Assembly (NCBI GenBank): GCA_030690305.1
Contig: JAUYHB010000027.1
Span: 79,670-143,669, forward strand
Source of the DNA: a bacterium
GTDB lineage: Bacteria; Patescibacteriota; Minisyncoccia; Phycocordibacterales; JAGLPS01
Direction: 5' to 3'
Length of the DNA: 64,000 nucleotides
The translations under genes were made by a program, and so were the position numbers. Position 1 is the stretch's first letter. Each line of letters opens with the position of its first letter. Positions 7,160 to 28,517 of this stretch are shown one piece after another. The notes beneath the pieces are model-generated. The model was not told the origin of the DNA and ran no database searches. It was given only the letters and a program-made list of their open reading frames with translations.

Positions 7160-7778
<619 letters not shown>

Positions 7779-8085: not shown

Positions 8086-9399
8086 TTAAATTGTCAACAA
8101 ACTTATACTTCTATCTAATCGTATTCTGAAATTATAAAACATACTTGATGAAGATTGCAAATGCCTCGTTGGGTCAGCAATTATACCCACCATCATTTCC
8201 CTGCCGTTTTTCGATAATACAACCTCACAAAACCATAAATAATGCGGCAAATTTGACTTTACCATTTCCTCAAACCTACTTTTGTCCTTGTCAGATAGAG
8301 TCTTTTTCTTGGGGTTCATTAGAAAATTCTTTAATATACTATTATCCACAATTAAGAATCTTTCTGATTTTACCTCATAACCCTCTTTAAGAAATACACT
8401 TTTTACAAAACGTACATAATTTTTCTTCATATTTGGAAAAGGGATAAAAACTTTTTCCATTTCTGGGACTATCATATACCCATTTGGTTTTATATAATCT
8501 TCGATAGCTTCCCAATTTACTAAATCTACAAAAGATTTGCCTTTCCTAGTATCACCATCCAAATCTTTTTGTTGGAAAAAAGCACCAGAATCATCGTATA
8601 CTAAATATTTTCTTCGGTTGTCTATTCCAAGCGTATGCCCAATTACAGTAATAACATGATCGTTTGACGTTAAAATTATGGGCAATTTACTTTCTATATA
8701 ACTATCCGCCCATTCTCTAAAATATTCTTTATACTTGTTAAAATGTATACTTGAAATTGGAATTTTGGCATTATTAAAAATTTCTATCATGTGATAAATA
8801 GTAATACCCTCGCTGGAGATCATTTTAGTCTTAAACGAGTATCCGCCAACAATGTCAGAAAGTTTTATCAAATTATATTCCAATGTTCTTCTCACAAATT
8901 TTGTAACCATAGCTATAGCAGCATGGGCGCATATTGTGACAACACCATCTTGAGAAAAAAATGGAAAAGTATGAATAATTAATTCTTTTCCACAAATATG
9001 AACAGTTTTTTTATAAGTCATTACATATACATCTTCTCCATACGTCCTCCTAAATTCATGAGCTAACATCTTCCAATTCGGATATATAAATGACAAACTG
9101 GCAGACACCTCACCGATGGGCCGTATATTCGCAAATCCAAGATAGAAATCCGATTCAATAACCTTATCTTTGAAGAAGTGAATTCTTGCTACAAAAGGCT
9201 TGAATTGATATGTTGTGTTTATATAATGCAAAGAAACCATTTCCTTCCATTCTCTCTCGATATACTCATCTTCTAATATAAAAAACTTGGCGTATTTGAT
9301 AATCCTATCTAACCTCGATATAAGATATCTTTTAATTAGTTCTTCAGGGATATTTAGTTTCTTAGCAAGTTCTTGGGATAGTAAGGCTATATGTTGCAT
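8086..9399 (-). CDS. Hypothetical protein with a C39-like (papain-fold) cysteine peptidase domain
   Basis: 437 aa. VTICAHAAIAMV resembles the C39 Cys motif CGxAxLAM. It is followed by His (HVITVIGHTLG) and Asp (YLVYDDSG) in the Cys-His-Asp order. Local GC is very low. Confidence 0.4.
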   Translation of the reverse strand: MQHIALLSQELAKKLNIPEELIKRYLISRLDRIIKYAKFFILEDEYIEREWKEMVSLHYINTTYQFKPFVARIHFFKDKVIESDFYLGFANIRPIGEVSASLSFIYPNWKMLAHEFRRTYGEDVYVMTYKKTVHICGKELIIHTFPFFSQDGVVTICAHAAIAMVTKFVRRTLEYNLIKLSDIVGGYSFKTKMISSEGITIYHMIEIFNNAKIPISSIHFNKYKEYFREWADSYIESKLPIILTSNDHVITVIGHTLGIDNRRKYLVYDDSGAFFQQKDLDGDTRKGKSFVDLVNWEAIEDYIKPNGYMIVPEMEKVFIPFPNMKKNYVRFVKSVFLKEGYEVKSERFLIVDNSILKNFLMNPKKKTLSDKDKSRFEEMVKSNLPHYLWFCEVVLSKNGREMMVGIIADPTRHLQSSSSMFYNFRIRLDRSISLLTI

Positions 9400-9829: not shown

Positions 9830-10873
9830 CTATCTATGCTCAAAATTATCGGCATCTCTGTTATTCCACAGCAACACAGTTAACGGCAAGTGATCAGAGG
9901 CATATGCGCCATATAACCAAATCCCTTTATTTTCCCTACCCTTAATCTTCTTAGGAATTTTAACTCCCTGTGGCGTTTGCAAATCCTCTTCCCACGCTCT
10001 ATGCACATGCGCCGAGTCTGGAACGATATCCTCATCGCTATAAATGTCCTGATACCACATCGTGTCATATTGGCTCTTGGATAGCCTGCCCCTCGCCTTA
10101 TCAAGTGTTGTCACGTCTTTCGATATTAAGACGTGCTTTATGTTGGGCAGACTTTTAAAAGAGTCCCACTCTTTCTTGTCTACGTTCGTATTGAAGTCGC
10201 CCATGAGGAAAACGTCATTTTGGCTCTCGTCTGAATCCTGTACCGTCTTGTATACGAAAACAAGTCTTCCTATTTCGTCTTTTCTCCATTGTGCGGCGGG
10301 CGAAGCGGCATGAATGGTAATAATGGTAAAGTCGAAATTGCCGTCTTTTGCTCTAAATGAGGCAATAAAAGGCTCTCTGTCAAACTGCCTTTCTTGATCG
10401 TTCAATCCGGACATTTTATTTTCAGATTCATTCCACACATGGGCCGAATCTTTAACAAGTTCAATTTTTGACTTTCTGTAAAGGAAAGCATAATACTCGA
10501 AGGTACTGAATGCCTTGCTTTTTTCAGCGTTTGCCGTTCCATTCGGCTCGGGACTGACAACATAGTCCCAATCTTCACCGAGATGAGCAACTATCTCCTG
10601 CAAGGCTTCTATACCCTTTCCGCCTAAAGGGTTATTTTTTGTGGCGCCGGTATTCATGACTTCTTGAATCGCAACGATGTCATAATTCTTGAGGATTATT
10701 GCTGCATTTTTCACTTGATACGGATTGTCTTTGCCGAGCTTCTCGATGTTAAAGGTGCCGATCCGGATTTGAGTAGTTGAGCTAAGGGAAACAGAAGGAT
10801 CAGAGTAGCAAACAGTATTTGGAGAAACAAAAAGGAGGGCAAGGAAAATGATCGTGCATATAAATTTACGCAT
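9830..10873 (-). CDS. Secreted endonuclease/exonuclease/phosphatase (EEP, DNase I-like) family protein
   Basis: N-terminal signal peptide MRKFICTIIFLALLFVSPNTVC. EEP motifs IRIGTFNIEKLG and YDIVAIQEV. Confidence 0.6.
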   Translation of the reverse strand: MRKFICTIIFLALLFVSPNTVCYSDPSVSLSSTTQIRIGTFNIEKLGKDNPYQVKNAAIILKNYDIVAIQEVMNTGATKNNPLGGKGIEALQEIVAHLGEDWDYVVSPEPNGTANAEKSKAFSTFEYYAFLYRKSKIELVKDSAHVWNESENKMSGLNDQERQFDREPFIASFRAKDGNFDFTIITIHAASPAAQWRKDEIGRLVFVYKTVQDSDESQNDVFLMGDFNTNVDKKEWDSFKSLPNIKHVLISKDVTTLDKARGRLSKSQYDTMWYQDIYSDEDIVPDSAHVHRAWEEDLQTPQGVKIPKKIKGRENKGIWLYGAYASDHLPLTVLLWNNRDADNFEHR

Positions 10874-10887
10874 ACGAACAAAATCTT

Positions 10888-11484
10888 TCAGACTCTATTA
10901 TCCAGCCAGACATCATTAACCACATTGAACAGTTCCTGATTGTCGTAATCCGCAGGCAACACATTCTCCGCGAGTTTATTAAACAGGTTGTATCCCTCTT
11001 TATAAAATCCGTTGGCAATCAGTTCCGAACAAATCAATCTCTTTCGGCTATTAAAAATGTTCCTCATATAAAGCAAAATTTTCCCCAGCCATGCGGCAAT
11101 GGGAAACCATAGGAGCTGGAGCTTGTCATAAGGGATATTATTCATGGTTGCCCACCACAACGTTACTTTAATCCTGTCATTGTCATCAATGTAGTTTTTT
11201 CTGACAACTCTTATTTCAATACCTTTATCCACGTAATCTTTCTGTAAATTGCAAACCCTTGACTGTGGGATTTGACCTTCAACCAAATCATACCCGCCCA
11301 TGCTTCCCGCAACATGAGTCCATTTGCTGCTTTCGCCGTAACCAAGCTTATGTTGAACCACAATGGTTGCTTTCGTGCCGCTCGCCACCAATATCACGTC
11401 GCCTATTTTGATTTTGTTGGGATCAATCTGTTTCTTGGAGATATTATCTTGCGACATAAGCCCTCTTTCCCACCCACAAAACAA
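10888..11484 (-). CDS. LRAT/NlpC-P60 superfamily (H-box / NCEHF-like) protein
   Basis: GDVILV resembles LRAT GDLI. It is followed by His in WTHVAG and Cys in RLICSELIANGF, resembling the NCEHF motif. Confidence 0.4.
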   Translation of the reverse strand: MFCGWERGLMSQDNISKKQIDPNKIKIGDVILVASGTKATIVVQHKLGYGESSKWTHVAGSMGGYDLVEGQIPQSRVCNLQKDYVDKGIEIRVVRKNYIDDNDRIKVTLWWATMNNIPYDKLQLLWFPIAAWLGKILLYMRNIFNSRKRLICSELIANGFYKEGYNLFNKLAENVLPADYDNQELFNVVNDVWLDNRV

Positions 11485-11625
11485 AAAACCCTCGCCTCTA
11501 AGGACGAAGGTTTGAGTTATTTTAACGTGGCAGTTCCCCCTTCAAACGTACCGCACCCGCTTTTCATTAAGCATTTTTATACACCTAAACACTCCTGAAA
11601 TCAATGATTTTCAGAAAAGCATGTC

Positions 11626-11796
11626 TACTTCATCAGCTTAAGGATCGCTTCGATATCACGGATGGCGATTTCAACGCTTTTGTCCGAGACCTTTTTCCCT
11701 GCCATGAAGCTATTAAGGACAGTCAGAGGCATTGTAAGTTTATTTCTAATCTCTGCTTCCAGTTCCTGTTTTTTTGAAAATTTTGGTTTGGTCATA
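11626..11796 (-). CDS. Possible small ORF (~56 aa), approximate coordinates
   Basis: Manual translation gives MTKPKFSKKQELEAEIRNKLTMPLTVLNSFMAGKKVSDKSVEIAIRDIEAILKLMK. It lies in the intergenic gap and is below the 60-aa track cutoff. Confidence 0.2.
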
Positions 11797-11844
11797 TTTT
11801 TTCTACGGTCATCCTACAATAAATTCCATGAAAAGACGACAACT

Positions 11845-14298
11845 TTATGTCAATCTTATTTTAAGGCCTACAACACAAAATCCCAGCATCCCTAAGACGA
11901 ACAGGACAGCTGTTGACGGTTCTGGAACAACTGAAGAGTCAATGGTTTCCTCAAATCGGTAAAGATTGATATTCCCAATTTGAGCTCGGTGCCCTTTTTC
12001 ATCGCTATCATAAAGAAAGGTCAACCACTGATTGGTTCCGGCATATTGAGAGACGTTGATCGGCGGTGATGAAAGAAACTCATTCGAATTTCTAGGGAAT
12101 GAACCACCATCAAAACCAAACAACGGATCAAGTCCGACAAAAAACCAGAGTTCGTCTTCCGGCAAGGGGTTCTCGAGCAAAAAAGCAAATGACAATGATT
12201 GACTATCTATAGGGAATGAATATTCTCTGAATAGAAATACTGGTGAGGCTGTTGCCATATGGTAATAACCATCTAGAAAATACACGTCTCCTTTTTTGAG
12301 CCAGAAATCAAACGCTCCTATGTCCACCTTCGCTGTATGCCCGGATGTCGGTCTTGTAGAAGCATCCCAAGGTAAAAGTGTATATACTGACAACGGATCT
12401 TGAAGATCATCTTCTTTAACTAAAAATGGATCATTCTGTCCCAATTCCCGACGAACAGTATCTATACTTTGTCCCTGAATACGCGGAGCAGGATTAAGCA
12501 CCTTTGACCATGCGGCTCCTACATCTGAAATTGGCATTCCATTGGATTTACTGAGTGTCCCCATCTCAATCTTATTAAAGGGATTGTGTAAATCATCATC
12601 CACTCCAAAATACCAATTAAAAGGATAACCATGATTAAACACATCTCCCAAATGAGATGTGGGAGGAAAACCTTTAGTATCTATATTAACAATGTCTCCA
12701 CCGCTTTCTACGTCTACATCCAAGAAATAATTTTTTCCAAAAGATGTTGGGTAGTTATCTATCCAAATTCCTTTTCCCAAAGCGTTCTTTTCTATCCAAC
12801 CGTCTAATTTAAGTTCAGTTAAAGAATAGGGTTGCCCTCCATCCGGCGCATCAAAGAGAGTAATCTGATCAACGTCATATCCATAACCATCAAGCAAATA
12901 TCCTCCAAAAGAAACTACACCGCCTCCATTGCTATGCCCAATCAAGTGTATCGGCGGCTGACCATTAATTTTTCCTAAAACTGTACCACTTTCTGCAAAA
13001 GTAGTCTCCAGCGCTCTCGCCATGAGCCTTCCCTCTTTCCACACTAAATTTCCCGGCCATGGTTTTTCTGTTATTGGATCTTGTCCTTGCGGAAAGGGTT
13101 GGCTTGGAGGTCCATAAGTCGTTGATGCAACGTCCATCCAATTCCAAGCCAAGACGTTAATATCTTTTCGATAATTTAGCGTCCCCGTAATAGGATTCTC
13201 AACTGTGTCCCGTATCCAAGAGGGTAAGGAAGAGTTAATTAACGCGCCCGTCCCATCTTTTTTCACATTGTTTGGTTCCCACCCATGAACAAGGACAACC
13301 GTTGGCTTTGATGAGTCAAATCCGGCTGTTCCGGGTAAAAGAACCTTCTTTCCGCCTTGCTCCTGCATTGACCATAACCCATGAAGAGGAGGAGGTTCAA
13401 TTTCAGTAGGCCTATTGTTTTTGGAAACAATCGGCTCGCCGTTTTGTGGATCTACGGAACCCGTCGGATGTTCTTGCGGTGGCGGTTCCTCATCATCTGG
13501 CGGCGGCGGTTCCGTATCGCCTCCCCCGTCATCTGGAGGTGGCGAAGGAAGAGACACTATGGAGGCAGCGCCCCATGCGTTCCCCAGTCCGGAGCCATTG
13601 TAATCAAACATTGACGTCCCGAGCCCTGTGGTGGTATCAATCGAAAAAATACTCGTTCCTGCTGCCCCGTAGAGAATCCCATTATCAGGTGATGCCAAGC
13701 CGAAAACATTGTTGAACCCTGTCGGGCCAATGACTGTGCCAGCACCCGTGGATACATCAATCTCCCTCAAGAAACTTGCAAGTGAAAAGGGATTTGAACC
13801 CAAGGAGGCACTGTACAACTTTCCATTGTGAAATGCCAAATCTCCTGACATGGGAGACCCCGTATCGCCGATCAGGGTGCTGCTCGCCGTTAGTGGATCA
13901 ATCGTGTACAGACCTTTACTAGATCCCCCTGCATACAAGGTGCCGTCGTTTCCAAAGACAAGGGAATTTGCGCCCAGAATGCTATGGAACCCTAAAGGGG
14001 TGGCCGCCGCAGTTGTTGGGTCAACCCGCCATAGCTTATCGAAAGTAAGACCATAAAGATTTGCTGATGGATCAAAGGCAATATCCGTCAACTGAAAACC
14101 AGTGTTTCCAATCAGGTCAACCGTTCCATCCTCCACATCTACCTTCGCGAGATTCCCAAGTTCATCATCAAGATAGAGGAAGGTCGCAGCGTCTGCTCGA
14201 AGTTGCCCAACAAAAGGAAAATTACATACGAGAAAAAAGAATGTTAACCCTACTACAGAGAATGTAACAAAGCCCCTCCTGAATATACCCATTTCCAA
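11845..14298 (-). CDS. Secreted multidomain protein with beta-propeller-like repeats, a Pro/Asp/Glu-rich linker, an alpha/beta-hydrolase (GHSNG) lipase/esterase domain and a C-terminal PEP-CTERM sorting signal
   Basis: 817 aa with a signal peptide. GXSXG motif HLIGHSNGGGV. The C-terminus VVPEPSTAVLFVLGMLGFCVVGLKIRLT is a PEP motif plus TM helix plus basic tail. Confidence 0.55.
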   Translation of the reverse strand: MEMGIFRRGFVTFSVVGLTFFFLVCNFPFVGQLRADAATFLYLDDELGNLAKVDVEDGTVDLIGNTGFQLTDIAFDPSANLYGLTFDKLWRVDPTTAAATPLGFHSILGANSLVFGNDGTLYAGGSSKGLYTIDPLTASSTLIGDTGSPMSGDLAFHNGKLYSASLGSNPFSLASFLREIDVSTGAGTVIGPTGFNNVFGLASPDNGILYGAAGTSIFSIDTTTGLGTSMFDYNGSGLGNAWGAASIVSLPSPPPDDGGGDTEPPPPDDEEPPPQEHPTGSVDPQNGEPIVSKNNRPTEIEPPPLHGLWSMQEQGGKKVLLPGTAGFDSSKPTVVLVHGWEPNNVKKDGTGALINSSLPSWIRDTVENPITGTLNYRKDINVLAWNWMDVASTTYGPPSQPFPQGQDPITEKPWPGNLVWKEGRLMARALETTFAESGTVLGKINGQPPIHLIGHSNGGGVVSFGGYLLDGYGYDVDQITLFDAPDGGQPYSLTELKLDGWIEKNALGKGIWIDNYPTSFGKNYFLDVDVESGGDIVNIDTKGFPPTSHLGDVFNHGYPFNWYFGVDDDLHNPFNKIEMGTLSKSNGMPISDVGAAWSKVLNPAPRIQGQSIDTVRRELGQNDPFLVKEDDLQDPLSVYTLLPWDASTRPTSGHTAKVDIGAFDFWLKKGDVYFLDGYYHMATASPVFLFREYSFPIDSQSLSFAFLLENPLPEDELWFFVGLDPLFGFDGGSFPRNSNEFLSSPPINVSQYAGTNQWLTFLYDSDEKGHRAQIGNINLYRFEETIDSSVVPEPSTAVLFVLGMLGFCVVGLKIRLT

Positions 14299-14331: not shown

Positions 14332-15075
14332 TTAAAACATCCCTCCCACTTGGACTGCCAATCTGTCCGCTATGGCCGCGCAGGCTTTCGCTCTGTCGAT
14401 GTTCGTCTGCTTTGCCGTGACCACGATGCGCGTCCTATATTCCTGATGTCCTGAATCAACTTGCCTCTCCGACGTAAAGCTGGTCGCGGAGCCGTAGGTG
14501 GTATTGGTCTTCATCATGCCTTTGACTCCCCCCTCGACTCTTTCTTTGATTTGAATGTCTACCGCGCCCAAATAGGTATCGACATGGATCATCGACCCCA
14601 CGACTCCGCCGATGACAGACCCCACAAGGGTGCCTGCCACTCCTCCGGCAACGGGGCCTCTCCAGCCGCCTCTGACATTGGAACCCGCCAACCCGCCGCC
14701 AAAGCCTCCGACAAGCATGCCCTCGGCGGTCAAGTCCTGCTTTTGCGCGCCCATATAAAGGAGATTGGCCTGAAGGATATGACCTGCTTTGCTCACATCG
14801 TTAGTTACGACATACCCTCGGGAGGAAATTTTGCTTTTTAACAGCTCCGCGAAGTCTATCTCCTGAAAATCCGAGGTATTGGTGACCCGGACAAAAATGC
14901 TGTTGTTCTTGGCGAGACTTTCGGGATCGATGAATATCGTCTCCGACATTTGTGCGGAGAGGGTCATCTGCCGGTTGCTTATCGCTTCTATGGTCCCGGC
15001 GCATCCGGAAAAAGTAACTGCTACAGAGACCAATAAAAAACATACGACTGCGAATCTCGGAATTTTGTAATACAT
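14332..15075 (-). CDS. traT: TraT complement-resistance / surface-exclusion lipoprotein homologue
   Basis: 247 aa with lipobox FSGC. It aligns by eye with F-plasmid TraT: QMSETIFIDPES vs QMSETIWLEP, ILQANLLYMGAQKQDL vs IQANVLKADKMDL, and the Gly-zipper segment YRTRIVVTAKQTNI vs YQTRVVSNANKVNL. Confidence 0.65.
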   Translation of the reverse strand: MYYKIPRFAVVCFLLVSVAVTFSGCAGTIEAISNRQMTLSAQMSETIFIDPESLAKNNSIFVRVTNTSDFQEIDFAELLKSKISSRGYVVTNDVSKAGHILQANLLYMGAQKQDLTAEGMLVGGFGGGLAGSNVRGGWRGPVAGGVAGTLVGSVIGGVVGSMIHVDTYLGAVDIQIKERVEGGVKGMMKTNTTYGSATSFTSERQVDSGHQEYRTRIVVTAKQTNIDRAKACAAIADRLAVQVGGMF

Positions 15076-19564: not shown

Positions 19565-22500
19565 TTAACCCCTGCTTGCTAAAAATTCCTTATTAACATC
19601 TAAATGTTCCTTTATTGATTGTTCAACACTGTCCGCGCATCTTTTCAATAAATTACTTAGAGCTCCCAGAGAAGTTTTTTTCTGCATCTCTTCGTAAATT
19701 CGCTTTTTTTCCAAAAGGGCTGGTGGAGCTTGACCACCAGAAGAAGACCATCCACCCTCAGGATATGTTTTCGAAAATAACAAAGAACGAATTGTCTTTA
19801 AATTATCACTCTTGATTCCTTCTTCAGAGATTCTTAAGAATAAATCAACAGTTTCACCGTTTAGTGGGAGGTATTGAGCACAAATCAATATCTCGTTAAT
19901 TTGCTTCTTTTGAACCAGTTCATTAATATATTCTGTTATATAAAGCTGATTTGTTTTATTGTTACGGGCGAATAAAATTGGCTTTAGTATTTTCTGAACG
20001 TCATAATATTCCACTCCTTCAGAATAAATATTATGCCATTCCAGAGATTGGGAAAGAAATTTCCTATAATCCTCGTAGGATTGAATTGATCCGCTCAAAT
20101 GTTTTATTCCATCATAAGGTATCGCCTCGAATTCGGCTCGTTTGTTATGCGTCTTAGATTCCTTAAGGCGATAATCAATGAAAGCAATTAATTCATCCAC
20201 ATTTCCAATACAAAATTCCACAATTTCCTGATCGTGCCATTCCAGCTCAGGCCTATCTTTTATTAAATCGTAGAGGGCTTTGACTAACTTGTTGATATCT
20301 TTGTGCTTCTTAAAATCATCCTTTAGTGAGTGGGTAAGAAATGAAACGTTGTCAACAAACTGATTATCGATATTTTTAATTTCATTTAACGCCAATAATA
20401 ATAATCCCATCAAGTCATCAACATTCTTATTTTCCTTGAAAACGAAATAAAGGTTTCGCACTACTTTGCTTATTATTTTGTCATTACCGCACCCAATGAG
20501 TTTTCTTGACCAATCCGATCGTTCTCTTGGTTGCTTTATTGTAATCAAATGTAACAATGTGCTGATTCGCTCATCTGTCGCCTTATTAATATCTGACAGT
20601 ATCTCGTTAGCTAACCGTTGCAGATGATTAGGATCAAGGTTCGTTAATGCACCGTCAATTTCCATTTTGAAATAATCGGGTATTAATTGCCATAATGTAG
20701 TGTTATCCCGAATTTCTCTAAAAGCGTCTGAATTCAACTCAACCCAACAATAAATAAAAATGGGATATAGATGTGAATTTAAAGGTTCAATCTTCTTGGC
20801 AAAACGATTTACAAATTTTGCTATCAACTCGGCAGAGCTATATTCCTGATTTAATTGTTGGACAGGCCTTGAAAAATCATGTGATTTCAAATACCATTTT
20901 TTTGACATTACATTCTCAACTAACCACGGCCATTTATTAGCTTGGGGAGCATCCTTTGAAACTTCTTCAAAACTCTGGACAATATCTAACCGAGAGGAAA
21001 AATATCGAAAAAGCTCGTATTCAGGACTTCGAGGAATACTTTTTAATAACTCAGTAATCTTTTCTATTCCCGGAGCATCTTGGGCCCACCAGTGCAAGAA
21101 CAAATCCTCTATGTCGCTCAACAGACGAAAATCTGTATTAGGATGAATCAAGCGGCCAATGTCATCAATAATTTTAATTTTTTCTTGAACAAATCTTTCG
21201 GCTAAAGGTAGCTGAGAAGGTGAGACATGGCCCATCCTCGTTTTGCCAATGTCGCTTACAACGTCAATTGCGCAAAGCTGGTACTCAATATTGGCATGTG
21301 TAAGCAATTTATCTAATAACGCCATTGCTGCATCTCTCATTTGTAATACTTTAGGATTATTGGGCAGAGGTCTTTCACCAAATTCCATTTTATCCAAATA
21401 AGAGCGGCTATATTCGTGGGTTGCTGCTAGAACTTCTGACAATGCTGATTTGACCATGTCCGCTCTATTTTTATTCGGCTCATCCAACCACTTCTCCATT
21501 AGATTCAGCATCTCAACAATAGAATCAACATCATTTCTTAAAGGAGAAACGCAATCTTTAATTAAAGTTAACGGTTTATAGTTGTCATATGTTCCCTTCA
21601 TTTCTAATGAATATAATCTTTCAATTAAGCATAAAATTTCATTTCGGTATTTGTGGCTTCTGATTAAACCATCAATGGCCGGGCCATAATCATCTGTAGA
21701 AAGCAATACAACGCGATAATCATCGGGATAAAGGAAGCTAGTTTCTTGGGGAGGGGGAAAGTCAAAATATGTATTTATTAAATCAAGACAACCTTTGGGT
21801 ATAAATTCGACAACATTTTTTAACCATTCCAGTCTTTCTCTTCTTTCAGTCCCCGAAGTATCTTTAGCCTTGTCGATCCACTCGTTTATAAATTCCTCTA
21901 ACATAGCTGAAATAATGTTAGCTTGACCATATTTAAATGTGGCTCCCAAATTAACAAAGATATTTTTCGAAAACAGAGGCATCCATTGCAAAACTAGGTT
22001 TTTCAAGTACTCCTTACTTAACTGTTCTAGCTTATACAATAAGTAAACATCGCCTCGCATGTCAGGTGAAAATCGAATTGCGCGGCCGACTTGCCGTAAT
22101 ATATTAGACTGAACCAGCCGATCAATGGCCTTTTTTATAAGATCACTACTTTTATTTAACTGTTTAGCTATTTCGTCAATCGTTCCCTGATTATCCTTAT
22201 TAAAAGGCACAATACATGCTAGATTTAAAAGAAGTTCATCCGCGCCGTCTTGAAAAACATCAGCAAGTGACTTCTTTGCATCAACAATAATATCTTCAAT
22301 TATTTCAGCTTTAATTTTAGAAAAGTCTTTAATCCCATCCCCCCTAATACGCTTTCCGATAAGAACAATAAAGTATGGATTAGGAAAGTCATGCACAATG
22401 ATTTCCTCATCGTTAACTCTATCTTTATTTGCACAGGCACGAAGCAGTTTCAATAAATCATCCTTAGGCCACTCATTAATTTTCAGAACAGTGGTAAACC

Positions 22501-23416
22501 CGCTCGCCCTAAACTCTTGTATTCTATCTTGCAAAATATAAATTCCAGATGTCCTTAAGCTAAGCACAACTTTGATATCCACACCGCTTTTAGTTAAAAA
22601 GGCCAAAAGAGGATTTAAAGTATTTAAATCACGGTCTGCATCGTCAAGAATTAATAAGTATTTCTGTTTAGGGTCAATTTCTTCTTGTATGGCAGCTTCA
22701 AAAGATCGATAACCCGTTTTAAGCATCCATGGCTGCCGAGTGGGGTCATACTCATATGCCAAAGTTGCTATTTCTCGCAGCAAATGCGATTTGCCAAAGC
22801 CGCCGGGTGCGTGAACAACAAATAATTGGTGCTTATCTGAAGCCATAAACTTTTGAAATTCTTCTATATAAGATTTAAATGCAGTGATCTCATGGGCAGG
22901 GACATCAATTAACTGCTTCTCTAAATCATCAAAATATAGACTGGCGGGGACTAATAACGGATGCTGTGGATCACCGAAATAAGAATTTCTAAGAAAGGGC
23001 TGTCGCTCAATTCTAATTTTTAGATTTTCTCTATGCCAAACATGTAGTGATTTTATTTCCTTGGGTTTTAAATTTTCCAAAGCCTTGACTTGGTCAACCC
23101 TTAATTCTGCAGTGGTAGCAATGCGAAGGTGCTCAACCTTGTTTTTAATTGCCTTGTCGATTTCCTTACTAATTTCCGACTTTAAATGACCCTCTGCTTC
23201 ACTAAAATTCTTTTGCGTCCATTTTGATTGAATGGAAAATAAACCCTCTAAATTCTCGCTAGGGTAAAACCCTTCATAATAACCATCCCAGCCGTTATCA
23301 AAACCAATGTAAGGACTCGAAGGAATAAAAGCTGGCGAGTTACATTCAATTGCGAATAAGTGATTAACCAATCTTTGAAAATCTTTTTCGTTAGTTATTT
23401 TTCCCAGATCTACCAT
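19565..23416 (-). CDS. Giant STAND-type P-loop NTPase with an N-terminal Mrr-like restriction-endonuclease motif and a ~900-aa C-terminal helical region (Avs/AVAST-like antiviral NTPase candidate)
   Basis: 1283 aa. N-terminus GFDNGWDGYYEG...GLFSIQSKW matches the Mrr_cat DxGxDG...QxK pattern. Walker A HAPGGFGKSHLL. Walker B YLLILDDADRD (hhhhDD). The remainder is long and alpha-helical. Confidence 0.5.
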   Translation of the reverse strand: MVDLGKITNEKDFQRLVNHLFAIECNSPAFIPSSPYIGFDNGWDGYYEGFYPSENLEGLFSIQSKWTQKNFSEAEGHLKSEISKEIDKAIKNKVEHLRIATTAELRVDQVKALENLKPKEIKSLHVWHRENLKIRIERQPFLRNSYFGDPQHPLLVPASLYFDDLEKQLIDVPAHEITAFKSYIEEFQKFMASDKHQLFVVHAPGGFGKSHLLREIATLAYEYDPTRQPWMLKTGYRSFEAAIQEEIDPKQKYLLILDDADRDLNTLNPLLAFLTKSGVDIKVVLSLRTSGIYILQDRIQEFRASGFTTVLKINEWPKDDLLKLLRACANKDRVNDEEIIVHDFPNPYFIVLIGKRIRGDGIKDFSKIKAEIIEDIIVDAKKSLADVFQDGADELLLNLACIVPFNKDNQGTIDEIAKQLNKSSDLIKKAIDRLVQSNILRQVGRAIRFSPDMRGDVYLLYKLEQLSKEYLKNLVLQWMPLFSKNIFVNLGATFKYGQANIISAMLEEFINEWIDKAKDTSGTERRERLEWLKNVVEFIPKGCLDLINTYFDFPPPQETSFLYPDDYRVVLLSTDDYGPAIDGLIRSHKYRNEILCLIERLYSLEMKGTYDNYKPLTLIKDCVSPLRNDVDSIVEMLNLMEKWLDEPNKNRADMVKSALSEVLAATHEYSRSYLDKMEFGERPLPNNPKVLQMRDAAMALLDKLLTHANIEYQLCAIDVVSDIGKTRMGHVSPSQLPLAERFVQEKIKIIDDIGRLIHPNTDFRLLSDIEDLFLHWWAQDAPGIEKITELLKSIPRSPEYELFRYFSSRLDIVQSFEEVSKDAPQANKWPWLVENVMSKKWYLKSHDFSRPVQQLNQEYSSAELIAKFVNRFAKKIEPLNSHLYPIFIYCWVELNSDAFREIRDNTTLWQLIPDYFKMEIDGALTNLDPNHLQRLANEILSDINKATDERISTLLHLITIKQPRERSDWSRKLIGCGNDKIISKVVRNLYFVFKENKNVDDLMGLLLLALNEIKNIDNQFVDNVSFLTHSLKDDFKKHKDINKLVKALYDLIKDRPELEWHDQEIVEFCIGNVDELIAFIDYRLKESKTHNKRAEFEAIPYDGIKHLSGSIQSYEDYRKFLSQSLEWHNIYSEGVEYYDVQKILKPILFARNNKTNQLYITEYINELVQKKQINEILICAQYLPLNGETVDLFLRISEEGIKSDNLKTIRSLLFSKTYPEGGWSSSGGQAPPALLEKKRIYEEMQKKTSLGALSNLLKRCADSVEQSIKEHLDVNKEFLASRG

Positions 23417-23485: not shown

Positions 23486-25432
23486 TCACACCATTTTGAC
23501 ACCAAAACTTTCAAGCCATCGCTGGATTACGCCTAAATGCTTTTCCCCCAGCCCTCGGTTACCTGTTTCCCACCTTGCCAACGTCCCCGGATCAACGCCT
23601 AAACGCCTCGCCAGTTGTGCTTGGGACAGGCCTAGGGTCTTCCGACAATGTATGATTTGCTCTGTGAGTGTCTGGGCCTCTGGCAATGGATTGTAGCCTA
23701 AGAATTCAATGATCTTGGGAATAAAGCGGATTTCGGGTTCGGTAAGCCCTAGTTCCCAGTGGCAGATGGTCATTTCATCGGCGCCAATTTGTGCGGCCGC
23801 CTGTTTCTGGAACAGCCCAAGGTCTAACCTGCGCTTCTTAACATGGTCTCCGATGGTGGTAAGGCTCTTGGGATAGGCCGGATCAGGCGGCTTTTGGGCG
23901 GTACGCCTGATATGGCAAAAAGGCAACGCAAGGATGTGGTTCTGAAGCTCTTTGGCCACTTTCTTAGTGGAGGGCAAATAAAAGAGGTTGACTTCCACTT
24001 CATCCTTCCCAATGACAATGCTTTCCGTAATGTTCTCTATAATCTTGCGTTTCTCCGCAAATTCAAGCCGGGACCAGTTCCCGTACAACCCCTTTCCCTC
24101 AGCAAGGATTTCATCCGATGAGAGGTAGTTAATCTTCAAGAAGTCGATTTCGGCCTGAACGCGCGGCATCTCATCTTCCAGTTGCTTTTCTTTCTCCTCC
24201 AAGGGTAAGTAGCGCTTGCCGAACCCTTCCTTGGTGATCTGTTTGGCCATATACAGGTCATATGTTTCATCCATTTCCTTTTTAATCTTCTGATACTCCC
24301 TCTCCAAGGCCTGCATCAGTTCCGCTTTGTCCTTGATGGTGTCTTCCGCCCCGTGAAGGTACTTCTCTATATCCTCAGGGGACATGAAGAACCCTTTCAG
24401 TTCCTCAAGGTAGATTTCCTCAAGGTCGGAAATAGTGATTTTGTTTCGGCACTTGCGGCATACGTATTTGTTGGGGTAATTGGAAAGGACGTACATCTGA
24501 CCCTTGCAGGCGCAGACCGCATATCCGGCAAACAACTGTACGGCCGTTCTCGATACCCGTTTTCGTGACTTTCCCTGTTCCTCAAGAATGTGATTGCATC
24601 GCTGCCACAGTTCGGGAGAAATGATGGGCTCGACTTCCGTGAAAACCCAGTCTTTCTCCGGCTTTACTTCCCAATGCCTCTTTCTATCAAGCGTTTTACT
24701 GTAATTGGCGCGGTGCAGTCCTTTAGCAGTGGAGTCTCTCAAGAGCCGGTCAACGGTCGTGTCCGAGAATTTTGAATTGTTCCTCGTTCGATAACCGGCT
24801 TCGTTCAAAAGACGCGCAACAACCTTCTTTCGCCTGTGTTCCAAGAAAAGCTCGTACATCTGTTTTCGAATCGGCACCTCGTTCGGAGCTGGGATAAGTT
24901 TCTTGTCCTTCCACTGATAGCCAAAAGGCGCCGCTCCCCCCAAGGGTTTCCCCAATTTTGCCCTGATGGGCACGGAGGCAGCGACGCGTTCCGCAATTTC
25001 ATCTCGTTCCCATTGGGCAAGCGCACTAATCATGGTATACAGGAGGCGTCCGGCGGGACTGCTTGTATCGATTGATTCTTGCAAGCTGATCAAGTCAGCA
25101 TTGCACTCTCTAAAGATTTCGGCGAATTCCAAAAGTTCTTTGGTGTTCCGTGCAAGCCGAGCGAGTTTGGAAAAAATAAGGCCGGTGATCGTTCCCTTGC
25201 GAACGTCGCTTAACATTCTCTGAGTTTCTGGATGATTGAAGACGGTCTTCCCGCTCACGGCTTCAAGATGATACACTGTTTTTACGTCCCACCCCTTCGA
25301 TTCGGCGTAATAGCTGGCTCGCTTTTCATGGTGCTCTGGGCTCTCTCCTTTTGCCTGATCTTCGGTCGATACTCTGATCCATATGCCGACTTGCTTTTTT
25401 AATCCATTTCCCTCATGTACATTCTTAGGCAT
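23486..25432 (-). CDS. Large serine recombinase (resolvase/invertase catalytic domain plus recombinase domain) with two extra C-terminal XRE-like HTH domains
   Basis: 648 aa. N-terminus VGIWIRVSTEDQAKGES carries the catalytic Ser. C-terminal HTH-like segments are LTTIGDHVKKRRLDLGLFQKQAAAQIG and TLGLSQAQLARRLGVDPGTLARWETG. Confidence 0.7.
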   Translation of the reverse strand: MPKNVHEGNGLKKQVGIWIRVSTEDQAKGESPEHHEKRASYYAESKGWDVKTVYHLEAVSGKTVFNHPETQRMLSDVRKGTITGLIFSKLARLARNTKELLEFAEIFRECNADLISLQESIDTSSPAGRLLYTMISALAQWERDEIAERVAASVPIRAKLGKPLGGAAPFGYQWKDKKLIPAPNEVPIRKQMYELFLEHRRKKVVARLLNEAGYRTRNNSKFSDTTVDRLLRDSTAKGLHRANYSKTLDRKRHWEVKPEKDWVFTEVEPIISPELWQRCNHILEEQGKSRKRVSRTAVQLFAGYAVCACKGQMYVLSNYPNKYVCRKCRNKITISDLEEIYLEELKGFFMSPEDIEKYLHGAEDTIKDKAELMQALEREYQKIKKEMDETYDLYMAKQITKEGFGKRYLPLEEKEKQLEDEMPRVQAEIDFLKINYLSSDEILAEGKGLYGNWSRLEFAEKRKIIENITESIVIGKDEVEVNLFYLPSTKKVAKELQNHILALPFCHIRRTAQKPPDPAYPKSLTTIGDHVKKRRLDLGLFQKQAAAQIGADEMTICHWELGLTEPEIRFIPKIIEFLGYNPLPEAQTLTEQIIHCRKTLGLSQAQLARRLGVDPGTLARWETGNRGLGEKHLGVIQRWLESFGVKMV

Positions 25433-25442
25433 GGCGCCCTCC

Positions 25443-28400
25443 TCACTTCTTCAGCTCTTTGAGTTTCTTTAAAGAATTGGCAACGACCCTCACAATCGCC
25501 TGCTCGCGGATTTCTGCGCTGTCAGTCGGGCGATAATTTGTCTTTAATTTATATCCCTTCACCGTCTTTTCGGTGCTCATTGATTTCATCGCGATTTCCT
25601 GCATGAAGGGTAAGAGTTGTTCGGGAGAAAAGAAACACACCCGCTCTCTATCCTCTTCGGTAACTTCCAACGCGATAGCATTTCTTAACTGTTCGAGTTT
25701 TCTGGGATCAGCGGATATTACCGTAACATATTGGAATCCTGCGGACAAACACTTTTTAACGTTGGCCGCCTCCTGATCCACCGGCGTCGTTACGCAAATC
25801 TGGCAGGCGATGGAACACTCCCCTTTTTGAAGCGCGACATCGACGCTTCCTTTGCCGTCGAGAATGGATTTCTCGATCACGGAAAGATACCCCAAATCAT
25901 CCGCCTGTTTTTTTATGAGAAACTGAAGGTACTTATGCTCCCTGCCTCCTCTCCCCGGCTGAACTGGTATGGGAGATCTCTTTCTCTCGGCAATCGCATG
26001 GATCGGCGCGGATTCTCTTGCAGACGGAATGTCTTCTTTTAGAACTCTGACTTCTTCCTTCTTCGGTTGAACAATTGACGGCTTTTCAACTTCAAATTCC
26101 ATTCTCGGTTCAATTGGCAAGTTCTCTCGTCGAATGCCGTATTTCTCTCTCGAAAGAGCGATGATTCGCCGCCGCTTCTCCTCGGCAATCGTCTTGTCAA
26201 CCCTCGGGAGAAGTGCAGTCGTCAGATTGAAATCAAAGTCGGCCCGCTCGATTCGGCAGACAGCCTCTCCGATTCCCAAGCTCTGCATGTCATCCGACTT
26301 GAAAAAAGAAAAACCGTTCTCCAGTTTTCTCGCGTCTTGGTCTCCCAAACGAAAACAAATGCGGGTACACGCGTTCGCAAGCACCGCGCTCGCGACATCC
26401 GGGTCGCGCGCTTCCAACTGCCGTAATTCCTGATGCGCAAGCGTCAGCCCTAAACGATATTTTCGGGCGCCGGAGAGAATAGATGCCATAGAAGGCGTGG
26501 AGAAATTTTGGAATTCATCGATATACAGCCAGAAGTCCCGCCGGTCTTCTTCTCTTGTTTCTTGTCTCCCCATGACGAGCTGATGAAATTTGGAAACGAG
26601 CAGACTGCCGAAAAGATAGGCGTTCTCCTCTCCGATGGCTCCCTGCGAAAGTCTGGCGAGAAGAATCTTTCCGCCGTTCATGATTTCAGCAAAGTTGAGA
26701 CGGTTTTCTTTTTGGGAAACCATATTGCGGATAGGCTTCGGACGAAGAAAAGCGTCAAGCCGGGTAATAATCGGGGCTTGGGGTCTTCCGGACAAAAGCG
26801 GATAAGCACGGGTCCAATAATAGACAACCTCGGGGTCGGTGACTGTTTTCAAAAATTCCGTTCTGAAGGACGGCTCGATGAGAAACCTGCGCAAATCGGC
26901 TAATGTGCCGCCGCGTGTGCTTTCGAGAAATGCGATCACCGCATTCGAGAATACGGATGTCATCTGGTCTCCCCATGCTGTCGAAAGCCTGCGGAAAACG
27001 GCGACGAGATCGGAGGCAAGCAAATTCTTCTCGAGCTCGGAATGCGCGGACAAAATGTTAAAGCCGATTGCGTATTCTTCATCCGATGGGTCGAGGACGA
27101 TGACGTCCTCGAAGCGTTCTTCCGGAATGTGTTCCAATATGGTGTTCACTAAGTCACCATGCGGATCAAGAACGGCAATTCCTTCCCCATTGCGGATATC
27201 CTGCAAAATGAGATTAAGCAGCAACGTGCTCTTGCCGGTACCACTCGCGCCGATTACATGCGTATGACGCACTCTTTGGTTCGAGTTTAAGGTAACCATT
27301 CGAGTCTCGCCGAGATGAACGTTTTCCCCGAGAACCAAGTTATGGTTTAACGCCGTCTTGGGCGCGGCTTTGGTCTTCTTTGCCCTCCGGTTAAGTTTTT
27401 CCGTTTTCACTGAATCCGAGGGCAGATGGACAATGGAAATTAGTTCATCACTATTGAGAATCATGCCGCTTCTTCTCGATTTCCTTGCGATCAAATCATT
27501 CTCGCGGTCTTCTAAACTATACCGTTCATCGTCTTCAAGCGGAATCAATTCGTTGCCGGTGGGATTTGAAAAGACCGACAGACTTCCCGCAAGCGCCTTC
27601 ACGATCTCTCTTGACCTATCCATTCGCGTGCTTCGCGCGGCAATGCGCACAACTGCGGCGTATAAAGGCTTTTCGACTTTTGTCTTGGCTTGAGCGGCAA
27701 AATCCGGGGCGTTCATAAAGAATGGCGTGCCGTCGGGACAGATGACTGCTTGCAAAATGCTTTCAGCCCACGGCGCGCAAACCGGCTCGAAAATCACCTG
27801 AAATACAGCGGCTTCTCCATCCCGCATCTCCGACAATGCTCCCATGATTCCGATAAATGGATCGGGGTCTAACTTACGTGAAGTTGCAAGCGGCAACATG
27901 AACTCCTGAGCAAGTCCGAAATCAACTATGGCAGTCTCTCCATCGCCTTTGACGCCTCTCCATGAATTTCTAAAGAAATCGGAACGGATAGACATGGAGG
28001 CTTCCGGGAAATGCGCGGAGAGCTGGGCCCTTACCTGACCCAGATCACCATCCGAAACGACGATTTGAACCGTGATCGAATCGGACAAACCGATGATTTC
28101 GAAAACAAGCGGGTGCGCGCAATACGACAGGCTCAACAAAAATTGTTCAAAGACTTCTTTGGAAACTTGGGATGCGGCGGGCAGGGTTATCTGAATCTCA
28201 TGAGGCAAAGTATATGACGCCCTGTTGGATTCGATATCAAGCGGTTCCGCCTCTTCGGGAGCATCGCTCGCCGTATTCTTTCTTCGCGAGACAAGCAGAC
28301 CAAACACTTGATCTGTCACGCTACTTAAAAAAGTCTTCCTGCGTCCGTCATCGATGGAGGGTTGGGTTGAGTAATATCCGGGAAACGATACGAACGGAGG

Positions 28401-28517
28401 CTCAGGAAGAACATGAAAATCAAAAGATTGTATTCCTCTGCCCCCATATTCCCATTCGTAAAACCGGCGGGTGGCTTTGACGATTTGCGATTCGTATATA
28501 TCTTCTGCCAATGCCAT
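25443..28517 (-). CDS. FtsK/HerA-superfamily P-loop ATPase (DUF87/VirB4/VirD4-like core) with a ~400-aa N-terminal and ~240-aa C-terminal domain of unknown function
   Basis: 1024 aa. Walker A HVIGASGTGKSTLLLNL, then VLDPHGD, Walker B LYIDEFQNF, and ARKYRLGLTLAHQELRQL (RKYG...Q..QL motif). No N-terminal TM helix. Separated by 10 nt from the recombinase gene. Confidence 0.5.
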   Translation of the reverse strand: MALAEDIYESQIVKATRRFYEWEYGGRGIQSFDFHVLPEPPFVSFPGYYSTQPSIDDGRRKTFLSSVTDQVFGLLVSRRKNTASDAPEEAEPLDIESNRASYTLPHEIQITLPAASQVSKEVFEQFLLSLSYCAHPLVFEIIGLSDSITVQIVVSDGDLGQVRAQLSAHFPEASMSIRSDFFRNSWRGVKGDGETAIVDFGLAQEFMLPLATSRKLDPDPFIGIMGALSEMRDGEAAVFQVIFEPVCAPWAESILQAVICPDGTPFFMNAPDFAAQAKTKVEKPLYAAVVRIAARSTRMDRSREIVKALAGSLSVFSNPTGNELIPLEDDERYSLEDRENDLIARKSRRSGMILNSDELISIVHLPSDSVKTEKLNRRAKKTKAAPKTALNHNLVLGENVHLGETRMVTLNSNQRVRHTHVIGASGTGKSTLLLNLILQDIRNGEGIAVLDPHGDLVNTILEHIPEERFEDVIVLDPSDEEYAIGFNILSAHSELEKNLLASDLVAVFRRLSTAWGDQMTSVFSNAVIAFLESTRGGTLADLRRFLIEPSFRTEFLKTVTDPEVVYYWTRAYPLLSGRPQAPIITRLDAFLRPKPIRNMVSQKENRLNFAEIMNGGKILLARLSQGAIGEENAYLFGSLLVSKFHQLVMGRQETREEDRRDFWLYIDEFQNFSTPSMASILSGARKYRLGLTLAHQELRQLEARDPDVASAVLANACTRICFRLGDQDARKLENGFSFFKSDDMQSLGIGEAVCRIERADFDFNLTTALLPRVDKTIAEEKRRRIIALSREKYGIRRENLPIEPRMEFEVEKPSIVQPKKEEVRVLKEDIPSARESAPIHAIAERKRSPIPVQPGRGGREHKYLQFLIKKQADDLGYLSVIEKSILDGKGSVDVALQKGECSIACQICVTTPVDQEAANVKKCLSAGFQYVTVISADPRKLEQLRNAIALEVTEEDRERVCFFSPEQLLPFMQEIAMKSMSTEKTVKGYKLKTNYRPTDSAEIREQAIVRVVANSLKKLKELKK

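Follow-up and report, generated by a model that had tools for sequence, protein, structure and literature searches.

A predicted Avs-like immune receptor with an Mrr-type nuclease-fold head, a STAND NTPase, and a HEAT-like sensor in a Patescibacteriota bacterium

The stretch analyzed here, called the window, comprises 64,000 nucleotides of contig JAUYHB010000027.1 (GenBank assembly GCA_030690305.1) from a bacterium of the Patescibacteriota lineage, and positions given without a locus number are counted from its first letter. On the minus strand, at 19565..23416, lies a complete STAND gene whose product is 100% identical to the NCBI entry "hypothetical protein Q8O71_03950 [bacterium]," a protein of a metagenome-assembled genome (MAG). 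Based on structural modeling, this protein is predicted to have three parts, a DNA-cutting head, an ATP-driven switch, and a long helical sensor, and to be built like the antiviral STAND (Avs) receptors. Its ATG start was backed by homologs that start at the same position and by an upstream purine run, GAGAG, and scans for promoters and terminators returned only chance-level signals. The domains and motifs assigned to the gene are as follows.

19565..23416, minus strand: complete STAND gene, 1283 codons plus a stop codon, ATG start
22967..23416, minus strand: N-terminal PD-(D/E)xK (Mrr-like) nuclease-fold domain, predicted effector, aa 1-150 (AlphaFold2, Foldseek, conservation)
23345-23347, minus strand: conserved E24 on helix 1 (alignments)
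23222..23299, minus strand: predicted catalytic core D40-x3-D44 ... Q63-x-K65, DNGWDG...IQSK (conservation, model, relaxed hhalign)
22832..22966, minus strand: conserved acidic linker, aa 151-195, with the motif PQxPxFVPxxxYF (alignments)
22466..22831, minus strand: STAND nucleotide-binding domain, aa 196-317 (Pfam PF25199, model, conservation)
22787-22810, minus strand: Walker A, APGGFGKS
22640-22657, minus strand: Walker B, LLILDD
22553-22555, minus strand: conserved R288
22064..22465, minus strand: helical domain, aa 318-385, and winged-helix domain, aa 386-451, of the NOD module (model, fold matches)
19568..22063, minus strand: all-alpha HEAT/ARM-like solenoid, predicted ligand sensor, aa 452-1283 (AlphaFold2, Foldseek)

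A preliminary description of this DNA had reported a 1283-aa open reading frame (ORF) with a D-x-G-x-D-G ... Q-x-K pattern near its N terminus and Walker motifs behind it. The frame and the quoted motifs were all present, on the minus strand, which that description had omitted. The string GFDNGWDGYYEG occupies residues 38-49 and IQSKW residues 62-66; the gap between them measures 12 residues and not 16 as given there. Similarly, Walker A (APGGFGKS, residues 203-210) had been placed about 60 residues behind the QxK but actually follows it after about 140, and a spacing of about 60 fits only the distance of about 50 residues from Walker A to Walker B (LLILDD, residues 254-259).

A word-indexed search of 5.8 billion proteins retrieved 106 mostly full-length homologs with 26-87% identity to the query. 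Nearly all of them were 1270-1330 aa long, unnamed, and covered the whole query, and the precomputed annotation of almost all consisted of Pfam PF25199 (nSTAND_NTPase5) alone. Residue conservation was counted over 170 full-length cluster representatives. The Walker A lysine K209 was conserved in 170/170 and the Walker B aspartate D258 in 168/170; in the N-terminal domain, D40 and D44 were kept in 165/165 and K65 in 163/167, whereas position 63 was Q in 157 and E in 6. This Q/E swap is as expected for PD-(D/E)xK nucleases, in which Q and E alternate at the (D/E/Q)xK position. Because 106 homologs were found and these residues were conserved across the 170 representatives, neither the reading frame nor its motifs are a product of chance.

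The N-terminal domain was the most conserved region of the protein, with a mean column conservation of 0.58 versus 0.34-0.44 elsewhere. E24, D40, D44, and K65 were invariant in the alignments, and Q14, N18, a PSSPYIG stretch, W43, G45, Q63, T67, and T101 were nearly so. An AlphaFold2 model of the N-terminal 175 residues, built with a 26-sequence alignment, reached a predicted local distance difference test (pLDDT) score of 87.3 and a predicted template modeling (pTM) score of 0.78, the linker at residues 151-195 scoring lower (pLDDT 61-71) in this isolated model. Its elements run in the order helix 10-25, strands 45-51 and 56-65, helix 71-91, strand 96-101, a further helix, and strand 123-127, and the model corresponds to the alpha-beta-beta-beta-alpha-beta core of PD-(D/E)xK nucleases, with D44 directly before strand 2 and Q63-x-K65 at the end of strand 3. 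The top matches of a Foldseek search of the Protein Data Bank (PDB) were EcAvs4 chains (8DGF; E 1.5e-3, probability 1.0, template modeling [TM] score 0.48-0.54), and these were followed by further proteins of the restriction-endonuclease fold: EcoT38I, R.BspD6I, Can2 (nuclease domains), MspJI, AF1548, and Rpb5. EcAvs4 is an antiviral STAND of type 4 (Mrr-STAND-TPR) that senses the portal, and the part of it matched here is presumably its N-terminal Mrr domain. The PD-(D/E)xK fold proposed for this N terminus in the preliminary description was thus recovered by structure prediction.

The domain was further compared with Escherichia coli Mrr, a Type IV restriction endonuclease, and with Mrr_cat, the family of its catalytic domain, with which it shares the fold class. 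The motifs of Mrr, G-x-D-G-G-(W/I)-D-G, then h-Q-x-K-(R)-W, then hhhh-T-T/N, are colinear with those of the query, and 22/170 relatives share with Mrr an I at position 43. The two differ in that the helix-1 acid of the query, E24, holds another position than that of Mrr and in that Q14 stands where Mrr has its FE motif. A relaxed hhalign run, which did not reach significance, placed GaDgGWDG on sGDGGIDG, IQsKW on VQAKRW, and LRIATNAEL on VFITTSxYT of Mrr. As a candidate member of Mrr_cat, the domain falls short at the profile level, and the model predicts a PD-(D/E)xK fold with the D...(Q/E)xK motif on consecutive strands. On the basis of fold and motifs, not of significant sequence similarity, we assign it as a predicted divergent Mrr-type PD-(D/E)xK domain.

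The central region belongs to the STAND superfamily and, within Pfam, to nSTAND_NTPase5. PF25199 scored 37.3 bits over residues 182-290, thereby exceeding its gathering score of 34, and a Methanoculleus relative (locus L025) additionally exceeded the NB-ARC threshold; the Pfam entry covers the P-loop core only. An AlphaFold2 model of residues 177-1283, built with 56 sequences, had a pLDDT of 90.3 and a pTM of 0.78. In this model, the nucleotide-binding domain (NBD) consists of five beta-alpha units and is followed by a helical bundle, the helical domain (HD), and then by a winged helix, the winged-helix domain (WHD). The wing hairpin carries the conserved LRxVG..RF, with PDMxGD directly after it (LRxVG..RFxPDMxGD), and the alignments showed R448, F449, P451, and D452 at the end of the winged helix to be invariant. 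Foldseek ranked EcAvs4 first for this model as well (E 7e-9), and its STAND matches included RPP1, WRR4A, EfAvs5, MalT, and the archaeal STAND-type ATPases 2fna and 2qen, with Orc1/Cdc6 ranking below the STAND NTPases. The Walker A/B pattern and an NBD-HD-WHD order resembling known STANDs were therefore both found, and the central domain is a STAND module, as had been proposed, and not a generic AAA+ domain.

Residues 452-1283 were modeled as an uninterrupted alpha-solenoid of about 830 residues that includes a single beta-hairpin pair at residues 666-683. The helical nature of the C-terminal part had been predicted correctly from the sequence, at a somewhat overestimated length of about 900 residues. 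After EcAvs4, the solenoid matched the HEAT/ARM solenoids importin-beta, CRM1, CAND1, SF3B1, and CAP-G in Foldseek. It is net acidic throughout the family (median isoelectric point [pI] 5.5-5.9), which is more in keeping with a sensor that binds protein than with one that binds nucleic acid. One might still suppose that the protein is a STAND-gated nuclease whose solenoid senses nucleic acid (modified or foreign DNA, in the manner of Type IV restriction), a small molecule, or the perturbation of a host factor (guard type). HEAT solenoids such as that of condensin CAP-G are indeed among the fold matches, the gene lies repeatedly beside or inside restriction-modification (RM) operons, and no trigger can be deduced from the analysis itself, some Avs families likewise having no identified phage activator. 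We nevertheless regard such a trigger as unlikely, since the acidity of the solenoid speaks against DNA binding of a general kind, EcAvs4, to which the NTPase plus sensor is structurally closest, senses a protein, and all characterized nuclease-bearing Avs proteins sense a phage protein. A DNA-sensing solenoid was accordingly down-weighted on account of this acidity.

In relatives of the query, the NTPase and the solenoid are combined with other N termini. Proteins from Arcobacter and Sulfurovum aligned with the query only from about residue 161 on and begin with a SMEK_N domain, SMEK being described as a nuclease domain of short-Argonaute partners (PMC10810196). Methanoculleus relatives begin with a hydrophobic, transmembrane-type (TM) helix and a helical region, and three homologs (P0103, P0104, and P0106) carry an extra helix-turn-helix (HTH) before the Mrr-like domain. 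The loci of the head-swapped relatives, in which NTPase and solenoid are common to all, are the following.

L035, 8551-12522, and L036, 9467-13372: relatives from Sulfurovum and Arcobacter
L025, 7307-11272: relative from Methanoculleus

Within the wider nSTAND5 clade, effectors have thus been swapped while the NTPase and sensor stayed constant, a behavior typical of Avs and NLR-like defense proteins.

Among known systems, EcAvs4 is the closest in design: it has the same domain order as the query (an Mrr-type PD-(D/E)xK domain, a STAND NOD module, and a long alpha-helical repeat sensor), it was the top PDB match for both the N-domain and the NTPase-plus-sensor models, and both are single-gene systems in defense islands. 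The two proteins share only 11-16% identity in structural alignments, however, and the query is shorter (1283 versus about 1540 aa). Furthermore, the sensor of the query resembles HEAT/ARM karyopherin-like solenoids, unlike that of EcAvs4, and its family occurs mainly in uncultured anaerobes and archaea and not in Enterobacteria. PDB sequence searches were empty for the N-domain profile and for the most Mrr-like member, and likewise for the whole-family profile, which yielded no match to 8DGF or other Avs chains. Avs5 (SIR2-nSTAND3-repeat; EfAvs5, 9JAP) and the plant or bacterial NLRs RPP1, WRR4A, and MalT match the NBD-HD-WHD module of the query by structure, but they belong to other NTPase clades (nSTAND3, NB-ARC, and MalT) and have other effectors (SIR2 and TIR) and sensors. 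Avs5 illustrates that "nSTAND" clades include experimentally validated antiviral receptors (PMC12931631). A census of prokaryotic STANDs distinguished 589 clades, of which 198 are defense associated, and named nSTAND clades (PMC13581612); it may already include the query family.

A scan of one genome per species yielded 33 loci with a family member. Restriction-modification, toxin-antitoxin (TA), abortive infection (Abi), or SIR2 genes were neighbors in 10/10 Pfam-annotated loci, a raw tally, and RM methylase, specificity, and Res families were the most recurrent neighbors in 13 further loci. The following arrangements were found.

L041, 4026-15279: STAND gene inside a Type I RM operon (HsdM, YhcG, STAND, HsdS, HsdR)
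L042, 3107-16055: STAND gene inside a Type I RM operon (HsdM, Fic, AbiJ [AbiJ-NTD4], STAND, HsdS, HEPN, HsdR)
L044: Type I RM system adjoining the STAND gene
L006: Type III RM system adjoining the STAND gene
L004: ThsA-like SIR2 protein directly upstream
L003: AbiEi/AbiEii
L005 and L043: TA modules
L001: E2/ThiF, reverse transcriptase, and terminase genes

The position of the homolog between hsdM and hsdS in L041 and L042 is the classic "hsd-embedded" arrangement of a defense hotspot. Association with defense genes or a defense-type effector serves as the criterion of Lee et al. 2026, and a tripartite architecture together with such an association or effector, the features of an Avs in the broad sense, was found here.

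The genes directly downstream of the STAND gene differed from locus to locus; the FRG genes of four loci and the two ORFs in the window are listed below.

L005, 13858-14793; L006, 13846-14745; L031, 13789-14664; L033, 8413-9300: FRG-domain genes (PF08867), 0-6 nt from the STAND stop codon
18956-19546, window, minus strand: ORF of 196 aa with two C-terminal hydrophobic helices, starting 18 nt after the STAND stop codon
17894-18898, window, minus strand: ORF of 334 aa with a C-terminal ...YIDLG...IYEIKSS... resembling a D...ExK nuclease motif

The STAND proteins of the four FRG loci are 56, 55, 26, and 24% identical to the query, respectively, and the FRG proteins matched the PADLOC candidate defense model PDC-S15. 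DUF4062 genes, matching the PADLOC candidate PDC-S60, lay directly downstream in two loci, L008 and L023. The 196-aa and 334-aa ORFs had no Pfam, PADLOC, or NCBIfam match and no counterpart beside the homologs. The tight spacing of the FRG genes in four loci with STANDs 24-56% identical to the query, the two DUF4062 loci, and the short distance to the window ORF would suit a two-gene system, with the effector encoded downstream by a variable gene (FRG, DUF4062, or the two window ORFs) and the N-terminal domain serving only for oligomerization or as an adaptor. This we hold to be highly improbable: what follows the STAND gene varies from one locus to the next, most loci having no such gene or an unrelated one, the FRG and DUF4062 proteins match PADLOC candidates that stand alone, and the conservation of catalytic residues argues that the N-terminal domain is itself the enzyme. 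No partner gene was conserved across the query family, and a fixed two-gene system was rejected, as FRG, DUF4062, and DUF5677-like genes recur downstream in subsets only. Because the immediate downstream gene varies between loci, the STAND protein is taken as a self-contained system.

The bacterial hosts in the one-genome-per-species scan were Omnitrophota, Patescibacteria/Paceibacterota, Acidobacteriota, Planctomycetia, Armatimonadetes, Bacteroidota, and delta- and gamma-proteobacterial MAGs, and the archaeal hosts were Bathyarchaeia, Theionarchaea, Methanobacterium, Methanomicrobiales, and Halobacteria. An exhaustive hidden Markov model (HMM) search of 1.84 billion cluster representatives with the N-domain profile returned 270 matches only, and the best 150 of these nearly all had the same architecture of about 1.3 kaa or were fragments of it. 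Given this small number, the uniform architecture, and the host range, the family is rare, coherent, and present in both prokaryotic domains. A bolder and rather doubtful proposal is that it forms a distinct ancient Avs lineage, shared horizontally between Archaea (Bathyarchaeia, Theionarchaea, methanogens, and Halobacteria) and uncultured Bacteria (Omnitrophota, Patescibacteria, and others), in which an unusually well-conserved HEAT-like sensor would recognize a protein fold that viruses of archaea and of bacteria have in common and the recurrent downstream genes, FRG and others, might be second effectors. Were this true, the family would be a cross-domain pattern-recognition receptor with a new type of sensor and a new trigger.

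Taken together, we consider it likely that the gene encodes a single-protein antiviral STAND (Avs, or bacterial NLR-like) immune receptor and that it is cargo of a mobile or defense island of low GC content. The three-part architecture, the folds, the conserved catalytic and Walker residues, the defense-island context, and the swapping of effectors in relatives were all observed. In Avs3, Avs4, and Avs7, a phage protein on the repeat sensor triggers STAND tetramerization, by which the Cap4 or Mrr nuclease domains are paired to form active sites (PMC13581612; bioRxiv 10.64898/2026.08.25.746987). By analogy with these three proteins, we infer the identity of the ligand, the oligomerization, the nuclease activity, and the abortive outcome. 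The acidic C-terminal alpha-solenoid would bind a conserved protein from an incoming virus or another mobile element, and this binding would free the ATP-bound NBD-HD-WHD module from autoinhibition and allow it to oligomerize. Oligomerization would then pair the N-terminal Mrr-like PD-(D/E)xK domains into active dimers, which would cut DNA indiscriminately and so abort the infection.

Several results weigh against this interpretation. At the level of known systems, neither PADLOC-DB v2, including its models for Avs1-5, at E<=0.01 nor NCBIfam matched the protein, and the literature search found no paper that mentions nSTAND5 and no member of the query family. At the level of structure, the Foldseek E-values of the N-terminal domain were modest, none being <=1e-3, and global TM-scores were low, at 0.48-0.54 for this domain and 0.21-0.23 for residues 177-1283. 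Pfam Mrr_cat (PF04471) did not match the query and matched just 1/26 relatives, at E 0.0021, and hhalign of the N-terminal domain against an E. coli Mrr profile was not significant (E 0.12, probability 0.5%), Mrr having been tried alone and as a 23-sequence profile of low diversity, for which the homolog search had given close relatives only. At the level of context, several of the 13 further loci had housekeeping neighbors only, and the mobility of the gene is read from its surroundings: the family was not found in phage GenBank records or IMG/VR, and a plasmid search gave a single weak match, to the NTPase. Because PADLOC and NCBIfam matches were lacking and the likeness to Mrr_cat was insignificant, we describe the protein as Avs-like in design and not as a demonstrated member of Avs2 or Avs4. 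The label "Avs2/Avs4-like" in the preliminary description accordingly holds for the architecture and the closest structure but not for family membership, and "Mrr-like" holds for fold and motif but not for sequence-profile similarity; its interpretation as a whole was largely supported, correct in substance, and unsurprising to specialists.

Prokaryotes have more than 90 families of STAND defense proteins; if active, this family would join them as a further pattern-recognition receptor armed with a nuclease. It is distinctive in being missing from PADLOC and NCBIfam, in the divergence of its Mrr-type head, which goes unrecognized in ordinary HMM searches, in its karyopherin-like sensor, and in its spread over archaea and candidate-phyla bacteria, where antiviral sensing is almost unstudied experimentally. 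The identity of its trigger could reveal a viral protein that is "visible" to immunity in these archaeal and candidate-phyla lineages, and the assignment gives a name to a widespread "hypothetical protein."

In the window, the STAND gene lies within a 1.6-30 kb stretch that is unlike the right half with its housekeeping genes (CysRS, DnaB, RmuC, and MacB). In the segment 18001-24000, the GC content is 0.36-0.40 for the STAND gene and the ORFs that immediately follow it, the gene by itself being at 0.36, versus 0.45-0.50 in neighboring genes, and this is consistent with recent horizontal acquisition. The other features of this stretch are listed below.

1651-6839, minus strand: Type III RM pair, Res of 897 aa (ResIII helicase) and Mod of 832 aa (N6_N4_Mtase)
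7384-7689, minus strand: two Rfam group II intron segments (group-II-D1D4-3, 140 bits; D1D4-1, 73 bits)
9830-14298, minus strand: EEP-family endonuclease/exonuclease/phosphatase (347 aa) and an 817-aa protein
14332-15075: TraT
23486-28517, minus strand: large serine recombinase (648 aa) and an adjoining VirD4/TraD/HerA-like ATPase (1024 aa)

The serine recombinase is directly upstream of the STAND gene and has two C-terminal HTH_3 domains, and the 1024-aa ATPase also matched PADLOC mad8 (E 7e-18). Together with TraT, these two genes suggest an integrative, possibly conjugative element. The ends of such an element were not found in the window, which showed no tRNA and no convincing att-like repeats. 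With this recombinase and coupling ATPase next to it, the STAND protein might instead be thought to have no immune role and to act as a STAND-type regulator or a maintenance or competition factor of the mobile element, its N-terminal domain serving DNA binding or site-specific processing and not killing. Non-defense STAND clades are interspersed with defense clades (PMC13581612), and Rpb5-type noncatalytic versions of the fold were among the matches of the N-terminal domain. The catalytic D, D, and (Q/E)xK are, however, near-absolutely conserved, the synteny with the recombinase and coupling ATPase is kept in no homolog locus, as is true of the window synteny around the STAND gene generally, and the recurrent neighbors are RM, TA, and Abi genes and not conjugation genes; we therefore judge a nonimmune role to be decidedly improbable and retain the antiviral receptor as the preferred reading.

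A Type III pair 26% identical to that of the window stands directly upstream of the STAND homolog in L006. The Res protein of the window showed a weak TnsA-like endonuclease match at residues 828-871. The group II intron segments sit between the Mod gene and an ORF at 8086-9399; no reverse-transcriptase ORF was recognized near them in the window, and the intron may be ORF-less or truncated. The 817-aa protein of the island carries a weak C-terminal PEP-CTERM sorting signal.

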